Assembly (NCBI GenBank): GCA_049322955.1
Contig: JBMOPU010000012.1
Location: 311,032-375,031 of the forward strand
From: Patescibacteria group bacterium
GTDB taxonomy: Bacteria > Patescibacteriota > Microgenomatia > UBA10105 > UBA927
Direction of reading: 5' to 3'
DNA length: 64,000 bases
Part shown: piece after piece, positions 1 to 63,680 of the stretch
Layout of the letters: every line of letters starts with the position of its first letter
How positions within the stretch are numbered: position 1 is the first letter of the stretch
The notes under the pieces: model-generated
What the model saw: only the letters and a program-made list of their open reading frames with translations
Told to the model about the DNA's origin: nothing
Database searches by the model: none
Position numbers and translations under genes: made by a program

Positions 1-3196
<3,196 letters not shown>

Positions 3197-3651
3197 TTAA
3201 ATGAGTATTTTCACGAATTCCCGCATAATAATATTTAGCTTCATTTATATATATCAATTTATATCATTGCTCAATTATTTTTGATTTATAATTCATGGTA
3301 ATGCCGCAATGTCATGATGACATGTAGGGAAAAACGCGGTTATCGTTTGGAGCCTTGTGACAGCCTTAATTCGTATTAGCCCTATAGTGCACTAGTGATA
3401 AGTCTTATAGTATATAATGGGTGTGAAAGCGATCCGGGTGAGCGAATGAATATCCTCTACGGTTTTTTTATCCTCAATCACGGAAACCATCAGAGGCAAA
3501 TAGGGTGGTTGGCAAATCTGTTTGATCAGTGCTAACTTTGTATCAGCCTATTAGAACGTGCTATATATTATTTATGGATCAAAAGTGTTTAACAGACAGC
3601 GTATATCTTCCTTCCGAGAATAAAATATATGATTGATTTTTTATTTTTTTC

Positions 3652-3681
3652 TTGTCAAAACAAGCTAAAATTCGCTACATT
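3652..3681 (+). promoter_or_regulatory. Putative sigma70-like promoter upstream of leuS
   Basis: TTGTCA (3652-3657), 18-nt spacer, TACATT (3676-3681), in the AT-rich divergent intergenic region 3101-3749. Confidence 0.3.
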
Positions 3682-3749
3682 CCAAAAATTCCTCTTGCTT
3701 CCTCCGTATAACTCGGTATACTTAAGTGGCACGTTTGGAGTGCACGTCT

Positions 3750-40381: not shown

Positions 40382-41725
40382 TCAGTCCCACCAGTCGAAA
40401 TCGTCAGCAGGGCTGAACGCATCCTTCACGGTGAAAACTGCCCAGTCGGCTGAAAATTCGGTCACGCTGTCTTCCATGACGAAATACAGCACGCGGTACC
40501 CGCCGAGCGTATTGAGTTCGGTGATTTTCATCAGGTTCGGGTCGGTCACACCGGCGCTTGTCACGATGAACGTGTTCCACTTGGTTTCGTGGGTGCCGCG
40601 TTCATACACGACGCTGGGAAGCAGTCCGAGCATTTCGAACAGCTTGGCGCTTCGGTTGTCCGTGATGTACTTTTCGAATTCCGCGTTGGACATCGGCTTG
40701 AGTGACTCGGTGCCTGCTTTTGCCGTGGTTTTTGCTTCCGTCAGGTTGCTATACCCGGGGTATGCATGGCAGAGTTTGACGCCAGAGAACGGGTGGTACA
40801 CGTTGAGCGAGCCGGTGCGGCGTGCGATGTACAGCGACTTGCCATCTGCACGCGTTATTTCAGCCCAGCCGGTGCCGACTTGTCCCGTCTGCGTCCACAC
40901 GAGCGTCTTGCCCGCGACTGCGTGAACGGTAGCATCCCAGCCCCAGGCGAAGCGAGCATCAGCATTCAGGTTGACGTCATCGTCGAGGAGCGCGAAGAGT
41001 TCCTCCGTGCCCATGTTATCCTGAATTTGCTTGGTGACCTTGCTGGAATTTTCGCAAGCCTCGGCTTCGATGTTGCCCTTGACCAGCATGGGAGTTCCCT
41101 TGCGTGGCTCTGTCTCGCCGGTCCAGTTTTTGAGCGTGATGTATGCGAGACCGGTTTTAACCGTCTCTGTGCTGTTGGGTGGCAGGAGGTAAATGCCAGT
41201 GTCGCCTTCGACGCAGAACTTCACGATTTTTCCACCGTGGGTCGGGTCGGCGTCACGATAATTACCGGTCCAGAACAGCACAACCTCATCAGCCTTGGTC
41301 TTGAGCGTTCCGCCGTTTTCCCAGCGCACCGGATTCTTCGGATAGACGTAGAGTGTGTCCAGCCGGTTGGTGTAGATGGCGTGGTAGTCTGGCGCGCATC
41401 CGGTCAGGAACTGTGCGGCGTATTCCCATTGGGTAGTATCCAACACGGACCCGAAGGGCTTGGTTTCGACAGGTTCATCCAACAGGTCGAGAGCCTCGGC
41501 CCGTTCCAGAATGAACTCGGTTGACACGCTGGTATATCCGTCGACATTGAATGTCGGCGGCGCATCATCAGCCTGAGCGGCGACGATGACCCACATGGGT
41601 GGCGTCCAGTCCGCGGGCGGCTGGTTGGATTGGGCAGACACGCTGGTAGGCGCGAATGCCGCGAAAAGCAGGCTCAACGTCATGAAAAGCACGAAGAGCG
41701 TGTAGGGATTGCGTTTTGTACGCAT
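40382..41725 (-). CDS. Secreted hypothetical protein (signal peptide)
   Basis: N-terminus MRTKRNPYTLFVLFMTLSLLFAAFAPTSVSAQS; GC3-rich codon usage unlike neighbouring genes. Confidence 0.6.
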   Translation of the reverse strand: MRTKRNPYTLFVLFMTLSLLFAAFAPTSVSAQSNQPPADWTPPMWVIVAAQADDAPPTFNVDGYTSVSTEFILERAEALDLLDEPVETKPFGSVLDTTQWEYAAQFLTGCAPDYHAIYTNRLDTLYVYPKNPVRWENGGTLKTKADEVVLFWTGNYRDADPTHGGKIVKFCVEGDTGIYLLPPNSTETVKTGLAYITLKNWTGETEPRKGTPMLVKGNIEAEACENSSKVTKQIQDNMGTEELFALLDDDVNLNADARFAWGWDATVHAVAGKTLVWTQTGQVGTGWAEITRADGKSLYIARRTGSLNVYHPFSGVKLCHAYPGYSNLTEAKTTAKAGTESLKPMSNAEFEKYITDNRSAKLFEMLGLLPSVVYERGTHETKWNTFIVTSAGVTDPNLMKITELNTLGGYRVLYFVMEDSVTEFSADWAVFTVKDAFSPADDFDWWD

Positions 41726-41858
41726 TGTGGTACCTTAACCTTTCTTTCGTAATCTAGTTTGATTTGGATTCGATTGTTTTGGAACAGTATTCAGTTGTTA
41801 CCCCTATTGACCACCTCCTTTTCGTTGGTGTTTCTAACAGGCCTTGCGGTCGGTTAGA

Positions 41859-41972
41859 CTAGTCTTGCTTTTTCTTCTTGGGCCTGAAAATATAGGCGCC
41901 AATTCCAGCAAACACGATTGACGTGACCACGATGATGATCACGATTTCCGCAGGCGTCGGTTTCCATTCCAT
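41859..41972 (-). CDS. Small single-TM protein (37 aa)
   Basis: MEWKPTPAEIVIIIVVTSIVFAGIGAYIFRPKKKKQD; SD AAGGAG 7 nt upstream of the ATG; lies upstream of the secreted-protein gene on the same strand. Confidence 0.5.
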   Translation of the reverse strand: MEWKPTPAEIVIIIVVTSIVFAGIGAYIFRPKKKKQD

Positions 41973-42119
41973 GACTCTTCTCCTTTCGATCTAAGATTTC
42001 GGGCTAACAATAAAATGTTGCCCTTTGGCGAATAACAATACATTTCTGTACTGGAATTTTTTCTTTCTTGTCTTGTTTTGTGTGATATTTTCCCCACTAA
42101 TTATTGGTATCTTAAAAAA

Positions 42120-42775
42120 GATATTTCTTTCCCCCGATCCGCACAGATATGTGTCTGTACAGAGTGGGGGAAAGAAGCGGGGTTAAATCGTCCCGAAAGG
42201 AGATCCGGTTGTCTCGCAGAGCGAGATCACGCTTCGCGTGACCGTAAATATAAAGAGAGATAATCAATCGCACAAAGCGGTATTTTCGAATCCACGAAAA
42301 GCGTGAACCGCGAAAGGCGCGTTTTGCGATGATTGTAATAAGTAAGCTAAAACGACTCCATGGAGGAGCGACTCATTCCTGTCCCGCGAAGCGGGACAAG
42401 CCTAAGTACGCTTTTTCTCTATGAATCGAAAAAAGCTACTTATTCCTGTATGCCTTGTTAAAGAGCCTACGGTGTAATTCGTCGTTCGGACGCGATTGTC
42501 CGTGGACGATACGCCATAGTCTGAGGTGTTAGCCCCAGAAAAGAATCCCGCCACACCACAACTGTTGGCCTGCCGTCCGCGAGTGCGACACGGCGGGACT
42601 CATTTCCGAGGGTAAAACTGTCTATTTACTTGTCAAACCATTTGTTTTCCTCAATCCGGCTCATGTTTATGAGCTGGGCTGGGGAAAAGGCTCGATTTAG
42701 TAACTCACATTTGAGTAACAGGCATCGAGCCAATGTGAGAGAGTTGATCCCGATAAATCGGGAAAGTCAAATAAG
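42120..42775 (+). ncRNA. Candidate large structured non-coding RNA (unclassified); strand uncertain
   Basis: About 650 bp with no credible ORF but many stable hairpins: ctttccccc...gggggaaag, tcacgc-TTCG-gcgtga, cacg-aaaag-cgtg, gtcccgc-gaa-gcgggac, tcccgcc...ggcggga, ggctcgat...atcgagcc. Immediately followed by an intrinsic terminator. Confidence 0.3.
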
Positions 42776-42805
42776 GACCAGACCGAAATCTGGTCCTTTT
42801 TGTGT
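42775..42805. terminator. Bidirectional intrinsic terminator
   Basis: ggaccagaccgaaatctggtcc hairpin followed by TTTTT on the plus strand; on the minus strand the same hairpin is followed by uuauuug, directly after the stop of 42809..43321. Confidence 0.5.
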
Positions 42806-42808
42806 TGA

Positions 42809-43321
42809 CTATGCCTCTTGTTGAGGCAAGGATGGTATGAGAATGCCCTCCATAATGATGGTGGTGGTGCCGGAGGTACAGGTTATGTGAACGCTGTTCG
42901 GATTGGTTTCGAGTGATTGGTTGCCCGTTGGTTGGACGGATACGTCACCTTGACCGAAATCAGCGGCGCATGTGTACTCGGGCGGTACGCTCCAGCTGAC
43001 GAATTGACCATTGTATTCGATGAACATCGAAATAGTCGTTCCGTCAGTGAATGTTGCCGTTGCATTCTGCATTTCAGTGGTGTTGCAGGTGAATCCGTCG
43101 GGGAATTTGTCTGATTCCACGACGTATATAGACATGGTTTCCCCGATGGGACACTCCACGTAAAATTCACCGCTGGTTTCAACCGAGACGAGCGGACATC
43201 CGCCGAACAGCAAAAAAAGCGGCAGGATACCCTTAAGTAAGCTTATCAGTTTCATTGCTCTGCTCCACGATAAAGTTAGTCTGAGACCGACTCGGTGGTA
43301 CTGATTCGGTCTCAGTTGCAT
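42809..43321 (-). CDS. Putative lipoprotein / secreted protein
   Basis: Likely start MKLISLLKGILPLFLLFGGCPLVS (about 43255) with a lipobox-like FGGC; GC-rich. Confidence 0.55.
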   Translation of the reverse strand: MQLRPNQYHRVGLRLTLSWSRAMKLISLLKGILPLFLLFGGCPLVSVETSGEFYVECPIGETMSIYVVESDKFPDGFTCNTTEMQNATATFTDGTTISMFIEYNGQFVSWSVPPEYTCAADFGQGDVSVQPTGNQSLETNPNSVHITCTSGTTTIIMEGILIPSLPQQEA

Positions 43322-44796: not shown

Positions 44797-45483
44797 GGTT
44801 TCTCCTGTTTGTGTGTGACCTCAGCGTTAGCCTCGGCCTTTGGATTGTTGAGCGCCGGAGGCGCTTTCAAATTTCTCAACCCCCTAAATAGGCGGATGAG
44901 TCCAATCAATTCCCTCGGGGTAAACCCCTTTATCGGGAATGGACATAAAGGTGGTGTATTTGTTTGTTCTACCTCTCTTGTTGGTGTTTGGATTGGTTGT
45001 TTCAAAAAGAATTTTTATCCCCTCGATAAATTCTTCTTTGTTTTTATTTCCCCTCTGTGTGTATATGAATCTGTTGATTCTTTTATATCCCCCGCACTAT
45101 GCCGATGATTATCGGAACAGAGCGGGGGATACGTATCAAAAAGGGGCAATCCGAAAGGAAAAAGGTGACAAAAACGCACCGTATTGACGGATTTGCAGGA
45201 GAAATCATGCTATTTTTTGCAACACAATTTTTTCTATTCAACTCTCTCTGTTAAGGTGCCTTTTGGCCAAAAGCAGAGAAAACCGCAATTGGTTTGTCTG
45301 CCTACAGACCAAAAGAACCACGGGCGCCTAACTTTTAGGCACGCGTGTGACCGGTTCATCACCGGAAGCGAGGCGAGATAAAGATCCCGTCTCGCTCCTG
45401 GGGACGATCGTTATCAGTCATTTATTAAAAGTGCTAGCTTACTTTGTTCTCCTTATATTGACGCCTTAATCTTATTTTTTTAC

Positions 45484-45516
45484 ACAAAAAAACCGGCTAC
45501 GATATCTGCCGGTTTC
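45484..45516 (-). terminator. Intrinsic terminator of the DUF11 surface-protein gene
   Basis: Minus-strand hairpin aaccggcagatatcgtagccggtt followed by tttttttgtgtaaaaaaa. Confidence 0.55.
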
Positions 45517-45590
45517 TGTTGCGTTATCTATTGGTTATAAGTTGCTTTGTTTTTTTGGCCGGCAGACCATTTTTAGATTGTCCTGATAGC

Positions 45591-62405: not shown

Positions 62406-63152
62406 TTATTGCGTGAAGATGACCAACTGACCGTTATTGTAGAGTTCAGCCCAGCGCTGAAGTTTCTTCCATGATGCGATGTCATCGCGTGAATTCGCCG
62501 GTTCGGGCAGGTTGTTGGTCCAGTTGCCGTTGCCGCCGTTGCTGATGCACACATTGGTGGCGCGGATGCGGTTTCTGCCTCCCGTCGGTCCGTCCTTCCA
62601 GTCCCAGTTGAGCAGGTCATGTAGCTCCTGCGCGGTGATTGGCTCGGCGGGCGGCGAAAGAACAACGCCTTGAAGTGACGAGCAATCGGCGCCGGTAGGC
62701 TGGTTGCTTTGCGTGGCACTGCTGACGACGCCGGGTGATGTGGGCGCCGTGGTAGCGTTTCCTGCTTCCATCTGGTTGACGACGCCGTTAGCGACCGCAT
62801 TGTCTGGTAGGGTCTGTCCGCCGTTATTGACCACGGGAACCGTGACCGTGTCATCTGTTTTCTTGACGACGCCGTTAGCGACCGCTTGCTCAGGCAAGGT
62901 CTGACCACCGTTGTTCACGACTGCGCCTGTGTCTTCATTAGCGTTGACCTGCTGTCCGGGCGCTTCGGTCGGACAATTATCGCTTTTCGCCGGGTCGCAC
63001 TTGGCGGCCGCGGATGTGATGCCCAGCGTTCCCAGCATGAGCGCGAGAATCAGCAGGGCGTTAAACCATCTATTTTGTGTGAATGTCATGTTGTCCTCCA
63101 TTTTCCATTCATCATGGAAACGGGGTTTGCCATCGGATGTGACGTGCGTCAT
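62406..63152 (-). CDS. Secreted repeat protein
   Basis: Probable start MTFTQNRWFNALLILALMLGTLGITSAAAKC (signal peptide, possible lipobox); internal duplicated block VVNNGGQTLP(E/D)(Q/N)AVANGVV. Confidence 0.55.
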   Translation of the reverse strand: MTHVTSDGKPRFHDEWKMEDNMTFTQNRWFNALLILALMLGTLGITSAAAKCDPAKSDNCPTEAPGQQVNANEDTGAVVNNGGQTLPEQAVANGVVKKTDDTVTVPVVNNGGQTLPDNAVANGVVNQMEAGNATTAPTSPGVVSSATQSNQPTGADCSSLQGVVLSPPAEPITAQELHDLLNWDWKDGPTGGRNRIRATNVCISNGGNGNWTNNLPEPANSRDDIASWKKLQRWAELYNNGQLVIFTQ

Positions 63153-63585
63153 TAATCCGGTGACCTCTGTTGGTTTTACGGCAACCTCTAGACCACGGGC
63201 AACCCATGGTTTCGATCGGCAATGTCTGTCAGATTGGAAGGCGAAACAGGCTTCCGTTGACAGCTGACTTTTTCAAGATAAGCCCATATGGTGACCTACC
63301 TTGTGTCGTGCTTGGCATCACCTCCTTTGTGTGATGTTTTTAATTTTTTTGTTGAAAAAATGACAATTTCATTTATTCAATTTCCATATTTTCTTTCCCC
63401 ATTTGTATCGTTGTTATTCCCCTTTCTATGGGGAGCAAATACGCTCCGCATAAAGGGGGGAATAACGGTCAGTAGGGGAATACATCATTGGTTTGGAGGT
63501 TGTACGAACTATACCTTTGTCTTGTTAAAGTGCATGCACCGTTTTTCCGTAACTGCCGCGAATAGCAGGGGAAAAAGTTCTGCAT

Positions 63586-63611
63586 AAAAAAACCGGGTTA
63601 TTTGTGCCCGG
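63586..63611 (-). terminator. Intrinsic terminator
   Basis: Minus-strand hairpin ccgggcacaaataacccgg followed by ttttttta, 70 nt downstream of the stop of 63681..63947. Confidence 0.45.
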
Positions 63612-63680
63612 AAGCAATGATTATAGGCTCAGATTAACCCTACTGTCAAGGCTAAATAGGGCAAAAACGAGAGAGCACTG

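Follow-up and report, generated by a model that had tools for sequence, protein, structure and literature searches.

A conserved structured RNA element with a boxA-like motif precedes surface-protein genes in Patescibacteria and may belong to a family of antitermination leaders

What is the function of a 0.8-kb stretch without long open reading frames (ORFs) that lies between two complete genes, each with its own stop codon, ribosome-binding site (RBS), and start codon? This question is raised by a 64,000-nucleotide (nt) stretch of contig JBMOPU010000012.1, hereafter the window, in which the gap at 41974–42808 was designated R1. An earlier note, made from the letters alone, had proposed an unclassified large RNA transcribed from the plus strand. 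The analyses below demonstrate that R1 is a real, conserved, structured RNA-type element. To judge from folding and covariation, its core most likely functions on the minus strand, which is the sense strand of the neighbouring genes. We give an even chance to the reading that R1 belongs to a family, not described before, of untranslated leaders or intercistronic RNAs that are long, structured, and cis-acting and would recruit the Nus-type antitermination machinery.

R1 is untranslated and unusually structured

No ORF longer than 64 amino acids (aa) was found in 41974–42808, as already noted. When the six longest ORFs of R1 were searched against Pfam, none exceeded the threshold, and the sole sub-threshold match was Imm48 (E = 0.099, 12.9 bits, cutoff 25). 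A decayed pseudogene was rejected because homology at the Pfam threshold was lacking, insertions and deletions occurred hairpin by hairpin, and substitutions were compensatory.

Nine perfect hairpins (stem of at least 6 bp, loop of 3–10 nt) were detected in 42000–42808, in agreement with the previous count of at least eight, and 500 dinucleotide shuffles contained 1.44 ± 1.28 (maximum 6). This count ranks first among 809-nt windows stepped by 400 nt over the 64 kb. The hairpin written earlier as gtcccgc-gaa-gcgggac was read correctly (42380–42398, 8 bp), and tcacgc-TTCG-gcgtga proved to be TCACGC-ttc-GCGTGA, a 6-3-6 triloop hairpin at 42227–42241. GNRA/UUCG-type loops were not borne out, as the loops are aaaa, aga, ttc, aatcca, gaa, tctatgaatc, gttt, taaa, and ccgaaa.

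The minimum free energy (MFE) of R1 was −305.8 kcal/mol (z = −11.1) on the plus strand and −320.8 kcal/mol (z = −12.1) on the minus strand, and the controls, ten coding segments of equal length and the ORF-free gap at 2787–3725, gave z values from +1.3 to −3.0. This other long ORF-free gap (0.9 kb; z = +0.4 and −0.3), which has neither the boxA-like motif nor the hairpin P11 described below, is not unusually structured; long gaps as such are thus not structured in this genome.

The Rfam search of the window at the gathering score gave no match, and the search of 41700–42900 at E ≤ 10 gave chance matches only (E > 0.8). The earlier note had not recognised hallmarks of RNase P, tmRNA, SRP, or 6S RNA, and no model of these matched, nor did OLE, GOLLD, ROOL, HEARO, or raiA. 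Its suggestion of a degenerate intron was not supported, as no group I or group II model matched and no exons were present. When the relatives L024, L027, and L028 were searched against Rfam (E ≤ 1), only two spurious miRNA models appeared, MIR9563 (E = 0.0088, 34 bits against a gathering score of 90) and MIR6426 (E = 0.14). No description of such an RNA was found in the literature on Patescibacteria RNA. A template repeat of a diversity-generating retroelement was rejected because no copy of the region was found in nearby coding sequence, and an integron attC site, a miniature inverted-repeat transposable element, or a repetitive extragenic palindromic element was rejected on size, synteny, and copy number.

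Conservation and covariation of R1

R1 is conserved in loci L004, L008–L012, L014, L024, and L026–L030, with syntenic homologues in 12 further loci, and every retrievable relative has a gap of 0.75–1.1 kb at the same position. Scans anchored on the neighbouring family 2 glycosyltransferase (GT2) gene gave 4 and 6 relatives (genome and metagenome contigs). L004, L010, and L012 carry DNA near-identical to R1 of the window. L014 is a mosaic, in which the 5′ part is identical up to UUUACGG and the 3′ part beyond has diverged. L008/L009, L011, L024, and L026 contain progressively diverged copies. The element is kept even in loci whose CLIPPER protein is 69% (L027) or 62% (L028–L030) identical, L028 coming from a 1.2-Mb contig of GCA_023245335.1 (Patescibacteria). 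The 17-mer TTAACAAGGCATACAGG is invariant in 13/13 loci with an R1-type element, always on the gene-sense strand; five matches to it in viral contigs, without flanking similarity, were attributed to chance. R1 is more conserved than the neighbouring proteins, and the conservation of its sequence reaches through to the RBS.

The layout consists of invariant blocks that alternate with hairpins of changing sequence. Peripheral domains have been lost (P7 in L008 and L026) or gained by insertion (L011, L024, and L027), and over-structuring is just as marked in the homologous regions (z of −5 to −17). UUAAC repeat arrays are inserted at the site corresponding to 42618–42637 in L011 and L027; these UUAAC/GUUAAC-like arrays between P3 and P5 occupy L027:12180–12330 (about 15 copies) and L011:2370–2450, where the window has a single UUUGACAAG. 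The arrays are possibly a multimerised protein-binding motif.

Covariation was evaluated with the RNAalifold structure on a seven-sequence alignment (A4), which has 229 pairs and is 90.9% paired. Pairs changed on both sides numbered 48, compared with 24.0 ± 3.3 in shuffled alignments (0/500 reach 48) and 8–22 in slid controls, and the covariation score was 0.192, compared with 0.118 for the shuffles and 0.05–0.09 for the slid controls. The aggregate covariation signal in these alignments is clear; as only 6–7 independent lineages are available, single helices are not individually proven. The alignments of variable domains were partly manual. MAFFT with RNAalifold on segment A recovered only part of the helices, and anchor-regex segmentation was unreliable for divergent members.

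Stems were compared by anchored hairpin-by-hairpin extraction (the automatic extraction of P1 was mis-anchored on L011), and they are replaced wholesale across the lineages. The P1 stems read CCCGAU, GUGACC, UGUGG, and UCCAG; the outer stems of P2 read GGCUCGA, GGCAUGA, and GGCUUAAU, with GGCGGA in L027 as read from the sequence; the inner stems of P3 read GCUCAU, CCCCGC, GCUCUU, and CCCGAU; and the P5 stems read UCCCGCC, GGGCGCC, UCCCGUU, and UCCCGCU. In P6b3, the stems GGAC, AGCC, GAAC, or UAUACC surround a conserved AAUUGC loop, and P6a and all P6b tiers are also replaced. P8 appears as five different stems, and the inner stem of P11 and the P12 stem are replaced as well.

The conserved core is better supported on the gene-sense strand

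The plus-strand orientation proposed earlier was not supported: in every homologue, folding and covariation of the conserved core were better on minus, the gene-sense strand. The MFE was 6–53 kcal/mol lower on the sense strand in 8/9 homologues; the exception was the R2 copy of L008 (−232.6 sense and −235.4 antisense, 2.8 lower antisense). The excess over composition-matched shuffles was larger on the sense strand in 9/9 homologues, and for the core from P5 to the second G-run the energy excess in seven lineages was −53 to −73 kcal/mol sense versus −33 to −52 kcal/mol antisense. Watson-Crick-only folds contained 97 interior G·T mismatches versus 58 A·C, and 1×1 mismatches, excluding the near-duplicates L012 and L014, were 54 G·T and 25 A·C. 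In P11, three pair positions are U·G or G·U in 5–8 of 13 sequences and Watson-Crick in most others. A covariance model of P11 scored the three sites of the window at 73.1 (R1), 62.5, and 46.8 bits on the minus strand versus 45.3 (R1), 36.1, and 28.7 bits on the plus strand, and in the other loci the gene-sense strand was 13–30 bits better at every site.

The 5′ end of the region is less one-sided. P0 is a GC-rich hairpin with flanking T and A runs that scores as an intrinsic terminator on both strands, which confirms the bidirectional terminator described previously. P0 begins 4 nt past the stop codon of the upstream minus-strand gene, shows compensatory changes between CAG/CUG and CGA/UCG, and has G·U pairs on the minus strand only (L011 and L024); it is therefore first of all the terminator of that gene. 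P1–P3 (42645–42765) show no strand preference after composition control. In P3 (42645–42690), the window lineage has three C·A mismatches where other lineages have Watson-Crick or G·U pairs; on the plus strand these are G·U, so that strand folds P3 about 9 kcal/mol better.

These observations bear on the alternative that the RNA is a plus-strand noncoding RNA ending at the terminator at 42775–42796 with its T5 tail, either as the whole 0.8 kb or as a small RNA of about 170–190 nt (the complements of P3, P2, and P1) divergent from the leader. The T5 tail and the A-tract are nearly invariant in homologues, in several lineages the plus-strand fold of P2 and P3 is better by 7–10 kcal/mol, and the whole plus strand has a z of −11. 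For the whole region, however, all strand tests point to minus, the only strand on which the boxA-like motif reads; for the small RNA, the plus strand showed no conserved promoter. Tandem G·U pairs in the complement of a C/A-rich loop account for the advantage of P2, which is gone after composition control. We consider a plus-strand RNA very unlikely as the explanation of R1. Given the lack of preference in P1–P3, the mismatches of P3, and the near-invariant T5 tail, a short plus-strand RNA over P1–P3, at about 42645–42800 and ending at P0, may nevertheless be made. Of the proposal of an unclassified large RNA, then, the conserved, covarying structure outside any Rfam family held up, and the plus strand and the free-standing OLE/GOLLD/ROOL-type form did not.

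A boxA-like block and P11 define a family of three elements in the window

The most conserved block of R1 on the minus strand is GGCUCUUUAACAAGGCAUACAGG. It contains GCUCUUUAACA (42456–42466 minus; GCTCTTTAACA in the RNA), which agrees with the gamma-proteobacterial boxA consensus GYTCTTTAANA of Baniulyte et al. (PMC5725501), a consensus that need not hold for this lineage; the 64 kb contain no other exact match to it. GCUCUUUAACA is identical to the boxA of the E. coli rrn leader and is present in all 5,426 E. coli genomes at 2–11 places each (median 7); the three places listed are all upstream of 16S. No rRNA operon was detected in the window by the Rfam scan, and the other loci analysed contain none either. 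Most homologues read GCAC[A/U/G]UUAACA, in which position 3 is A and position 5 varies, and the invariant part is GC.C.UUAACA; the family form can also be written GC(U/A)CNUUAACAAGG. The pattern GCWCNTTAACA occurs exactly three times in the window, in R1 and in two further elements termed R2 and R3, all on the minus strand and all upstream of P11 (expected 0.19; 0/100 shuffles reach three). In the other loci, it occurs once per element and always gene-sense, with none in the R2 copy of L008.

The family signature comprises the boxA-like motif, the first C-run, P11 (UAUUCCCCRCUCUGU...GGGGAAUAU) with the second G-run, and the A-rich spacer. Searches with the P11 model picked up all three leaders of the window and each R element of the other loci; the rest of the window and about 250 kb of loci outside R elements gave no match, nor did unrelated loci (Maribacter and viral contigs). 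In the P11 alignment, 91.4% of cells are paired, the covariation score is 0.408 versus 0.176, and the loops vary from 4 to 10 nt. The helix that can close the P11 domain in R1 has a predicted analogue in R3. P11 followed by a U-run was considered as a terminator and rejected, since the U-run is the loop of the covarying hairpin P12.

R2 is ORF-free and over-structured (z = −11.5 minus, −5.0 plus). Nhmmer profiles link it to R1, and direct alignment gives a short match only; L028 carries a hybrid element with an R2-like start and an R1-like continuation, and R1 and R2 are therefore homologous over their length. L008 carries three copies of the element. R3 is shorter, its leader has a z of −5.3, and its boxA-like motif lies about 80–90 nt downstream of its promoter. 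The boxA-like motif and P11 are retained in both R2 and R3, which lack most of the ornate domains of R1. The R3 leader also contains a 31-aa ORF that begins at 63318 and has a strong RBS.

Because TTAACA resembles a −35 hexamer, the region could instead act at the DNA level, as promoters and operator arrays in which TTAACA serves as a −35 box or as transcription-factor sites and the hairpins are by-products of palindromic sites. TTAAC/GTTAAC motifs are repeated in L011 and L027, and in R2 TTAACA with AAAAAT 16 nt downstream passes a promoter scan. In the R1 homologues, however, no −10 is conserved at the right spacing, and TTAACA as a −35 box was rejected on this ground. Stems change completely while pairing is kept, and G·U pairs occur on one strand only. 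Strand-specific wobble pairs and replaced stems are unlike DNA-binding sites, which makes a DNA-level explanation extremely unlikely.

A proposed cis-acting leader and its alternatives

R1, R2, and R3 each lie directly upstream of a signal-peptide gene, and family members follow the intrinsic terminator of the preceding gene in sortase-CLIPPER surface-protein loci. Three paralogous copies, each before such a gene, one behind a perfect promoter, and all with the boxA-like motif, point to a cis-acting leader, and we infer that the elements are untranslated leaders or intercistronic RNAs. In the mechanism that we propose, the nascent boxA-like RNA (GCUCUUUAACAAGG) would load NusB/S10-type elongation factors on RNA polymerase, with P11 possibly contributing a protein-bound hairpin like that of a nut site. 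The leader, being untranslated, would be Rho-sensitive; a polymerase modified in this way could cross more than 0.5 kb of structured leader, and the terminators of the cluster, without Rho-dependent or intrinsic termination. The structured domains may stabilise the mRNA and/or set the level of read-through, and the A-rich spacer and the strong Shine-Dalgarno sequence would then drive translation.

Several observations weigh against this antitermination reading. The identification of boxA was post hoc, and at least one exact consensus match is expected in 20/100 shuffles of the window, so the exact match alone is weak. R2, R3, L011, L024, L026, and L028 read GCAC[N]UUAACA, off the gamma-proteobacterial consensus at positions 3 and 5, and invariance runs 3′ into AAGGCAUACAGG, which is part of no known boxA. 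The promoter scan for R1 and R2 on either strand found no conserved −35/−10 pair. P1–P3 start about 10 nt past the terminator P0, so R1 would be reached by read-through or begun inside the upstream gene, and the strand ambiguity of P1–P3 and the P3 mismatches described above count here as well. Beyond the boxA-like motif and P11, R1 has covarying hairpin domains that amount to about 400 nt and have conserved loops, and antitermination alone gives no reason for such an ornate structure.

The size of R1 and its many conserved loops and junctions (ACGGCAGG, AAUUGC, and GAUUAUCUCUCUUUAUAUUUACGG), which suggest tertiary contacts or protein binding, speak for the main alternative, a processed, trans-acting RNA or ribonucleoprotein. 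In this case a free-standing large RNA would be cut from the operon transcript like OLE, maybe acting with the KKKK-tailed micro-protein or the surface-fibre machinery, and its position before genes would be incidental. Its higher conservation than that of the adjoining proteins and the conserved basic-tailed micro-protein directly 3′ of R1 fit as well. The two or three diverged paralogues per locus are each tied to their own downstream genes, however, the reduced R2 and R3 have kept the boxA-like motif and P11 rather than the ornate domains, the 3′ end showed neither a terminator nor a processing signal, and conservation continues as far as the RBS. We regard a trans-acting RNA as unlikely, though worth serious consideration.

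Conserved unpaired loops are also typical of binding pockets, and R1 might be a leader that senses a ligand or signal, of a very large riboswitch or attenuator type. P5–P8 would be the sensor, and the switch would operate by pairing of CUGGGG with CCUCGG or CCUCAG and of the C-run with either G-run. Around 42521–42610, the sequence variation is compatible with each of two mutually exclusive pairings, and two C-runs and two G-runs flank P11. With only 6–7 lineages, however, the alternative pairings are indistinguishable from chance; no known aptamer matched, no expression platform (terminator or RBS sequestration) was identified, and R2 and R3 are without the putative sensor domains. A sensing leader is thus distinctly doubtful.

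A more far-reaching, and likewise doubtful, variant is that R1 is the full-size form of a new ornate RNA class of 0.5–1 kb specific to Microgenomates/Patescibacteria. Its invariant loops (ACGGCAGG, AAUUGC, and CUCUCUUUAUAUUUACGG) would build a tertiary fold that senses a signal or binds envelope proteins (the KKKK-tailed micro-protein or sortase substrates), which would couple surface-fibre assembly to Nus-dependent transcription of variable surface-protein cassettes. If true, this would be a giant riboregulator or ribonucleoprotein without a described counterpart.

Comparison with known systems

Nus-factor complexes act at the boxA elements of rRNA and suhB (PMC5725501). R1 resembles the boxA signals of rRNA leaders, lambda nut, and the suhB 5′ untranslated region in its boxA match and in the placement of the motif on the presumably transcribed strand of a long untranslated structured RNA. 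The R elements differ in context, lying in Patescibacteria surface-protein operons rather than before rRNA, and most family members differ in the A at position 3, the variable position 5, and the invariance into AAGGCAUACAGG. CRISPR-array leaders likewise carry boxA antitermination signals, and such signals are RNAs bound by NusB and NusE (S10). In nut sites, boxA is followed by the boxB hairpin; the R elements likewise have a conserved hairpin after the boxA-like motif, but 55–280 nt away instead of about 8 nt.

Long leaders are also known from Bacillus velezensis, where the LoaP-dependent leaders of the dfn and mln operons (dfn, 417 nt) share a near-identical small hairpin, the operons are long and interrupted by intrinsic terminators, and antitermination by LoaP depends on the leader hairpin (PMC12691694). 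The leaders of R1–R3 similarly share the P11 base, and intrinsic terminators stand between their co-directional genes. The LoaP-type hairpin has a UNCG tetraloop and is bound by a NusG paralogue, whereas P11 spans 50 nt, has a base made of a C-run and a G-run, and varies in its loop; the element is also two to three times larger. The EAR RNA, another processive antitermination RNA, belongs to a cell-surface (exopolysaccharide) operon. As for EAR/epsC of Bacillus eps operons, Rfam release 15 has no meaningful match to R1; the membership of epsC/EAR in Rfam was not checked.

With OLE, GOLLD, ROOL, HEARO, and raiA, R1 shares a length of 0.5–1 kb, many helices, conserved loops and junctions, and peripheral domains that are gained or lost. 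OLE is embedded co-directionally among genes, and so is R1. The R family differs from these RNAs in that no covariance model matches, several diverged copies per locus are tied to downstream genes, and its shorter members R2 and R3 keep only the boxA-like motif and P11.

Patescibacteria (candidate phyla radiation) have tiny genomes and almost no characterised regulatory RNA, and here 0.5–1 kb of noncoding DNA is kept, in up to three copies per locus, before genes that build the cell surface, which is the interface with the host. If the boxA reading is true, Nus-factor antitermination, classically associated with rRNA and phage, would extend to surface-protein operons of a deep bacterial lineage, and boxA could then be studied outside Proteobacteria in a well-defined natural setting. 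Should the ornate domains prove to have their own function, the family would constitute a new class of large structured RNA. In either case, the family can be converted to covariance models for annotating hundreds of Patescibacteria genomes.

Feature coordinates and the surrounding locus

Coordinates of R1 (its parts listed 5′ to 3′ on the minus strand), its paralogues, and the adjoining genes in the window
Feature	Positions	Strand	Remarks
R1, whole element, untranslated gap	41974–42808	minus	between stop of 148/170-aa lipoprotein-like gene (42809) and start of 37-aa micro-protein gene (41972)
P0, intrinsic terminator hairpin of upstream gene	42773–42798	minus	bidirectional; A-tract 5′, T-rich tail 3′
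P1 hairpin	42748–42765	minus	stem sequence wholly different between lineages, hairpin always formed
Conserved block CAACUCUCU	42738–42746	minus	precedes P2
P2 hairpin domain, GGCUCGA...UCGAGCC	42689–42731	minus	double changes in 6/11 pairs (helices 4–5)
P3 hairpin, CCUUUUCC...UUGAGGAAA, covarying inner stem	42645–42690	minus	strand preference of P1–P3 ambiguous
UUUGACAAGUAAAUAGACAG block (UUUAACAAG in relatives), partial second boxA-like sequence	42618–42637	minus	
P5 domain, GAG-UCCCGCC...GGCGGGA-UUC enclosing conserved ACGGCAGG	42538–42610	minus	compensatory in L011 and L027, U·G in L024 (sequences read directly)
P6a (CUGGGG/CCUCAG) and three-tier P6b, conserved loop AAU(U/C)GC	42467–42538	minus	all stems covary (helices 16–17)
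boxA-like block GCUCUUUAACAAGGCAUACAGG	42445–42466	minus	UUAACAAGGCAUACAGG invariant in every R1-type homologue
P7 variable domain, nested hairpins including GUCCCGC-uuc-GCGGGAC	42337–42444	minus	deleted in L008 and L026; remodelled in L024, L027, and L028
Conserved blocks GCGCCUUUCGCGG, P8 hairpin (five different stem sequences), GGAUUCGAAAAUACCGC, GAUUAUCUCUCUUUAUAUUUACGG	42242–42320	minus	helix 28
P10a and P10b, lineage-specific 6-bp triloop hairpins	42212–42241	minus	tcacgc...gcgtga and tctcgc...gcgaga of the earlier note
P11 long hairpin, sequence-conserved base UUCUUUCCCCC/GGGGGAAAGAA, covarying inner stem	42125–42176	minus	signature of R1, R2, and R3
P12 hairpin, UAUCUU-uuuu-AAGAUA	42108–42123	minus	
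Second G-run GUGGGGAAAAUAUC	42084–42097	minus	GUGGGG can pair with CCCCGC at 42177–42182, closing the P11 domain
A-rich, weakly structured spacer and conserved pre-RBS segment	41974–42083	minus	
Shine-Dalgarno sequence AAAGGAGAAG	41977–41986	minus	
37-aa micro-protein, single transmembrane segment, KKKK(Q)D tail	41859–41972	minus	directly downstream of R1
447-aa secreted protein gene	40382–41725	minus	after 37-aa micro-protein gene
R2 paralogue	44797–45590	minus	between CLIPPER/DUF11 gene and 490-aa lipoprotein gene; boxA-like motif 45249–45259, P11 45080–45135
R3, short family member	about 63090–63650	minus	found via boxA-like motif; signal-peptide gene starts at 63089
R3 perfect TTGACA-N18-TATAAT sigma-70 promoter	63649–63620	minus	
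R3 5′ hairpin and U7	63611–63586	minus	right after predicted transcription start
R3 boxA-like motif GCACUUUAACA	63523–63533	minus	
R3 P11-like hairpin	63409–63468	minus	closed by C-run/G-run helix
R3 GGGGAAAG	63393–63400	minus	A-rich stretch next

The neighbourhood in the window and its relatives contains a giant protein of about 1,900–2,000 aa, a sortase, a 220-aa CLIPPER/DUF11 protein, small secreted proteins, and GT2 and GT-C glycosyltransferases; an acetyltransferase is also present in the neighbourhood of the relatives. At E ≤ 1e-10, the databases contain 99 relatives of the CLIPPER protein, and the few source names among them are Patescibacteria group, Woesebacteria, and Gottesmanbacteria, the exception being one partial match labelled Pseudomonadota. 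Twelve relatives of the 447-aa protein were found, not counting the protein itself; the source of one is named Candidatus Gottesmanbacteria. The neighbourhood appears to be a sortase-dependent locus for the cell surface in a Patescibacterium of the Microgenomates type. L008, L010, L011, and L012 retain the 37-aa micro-protein, with longer N-termini in their annotations.

Two further observations concern the relatives. The 447-aa secreted protein (40382–41725 minus) is only 46% identical to its counterpart at L012:6001–7368, although the upstream noncoding DNA is near-identical and the gene order is equal, as though one surface-protein allele had been swapped for another between conserved flanks. 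L014 (CAYUZE010000007.1) is titled 'uncultured Gammaproteobacteria bacterium', yet it has the Patescibacteria locus, with a GT2 that is 97% identical and both R1 and R2 present, and the bin is probably mislabelled.

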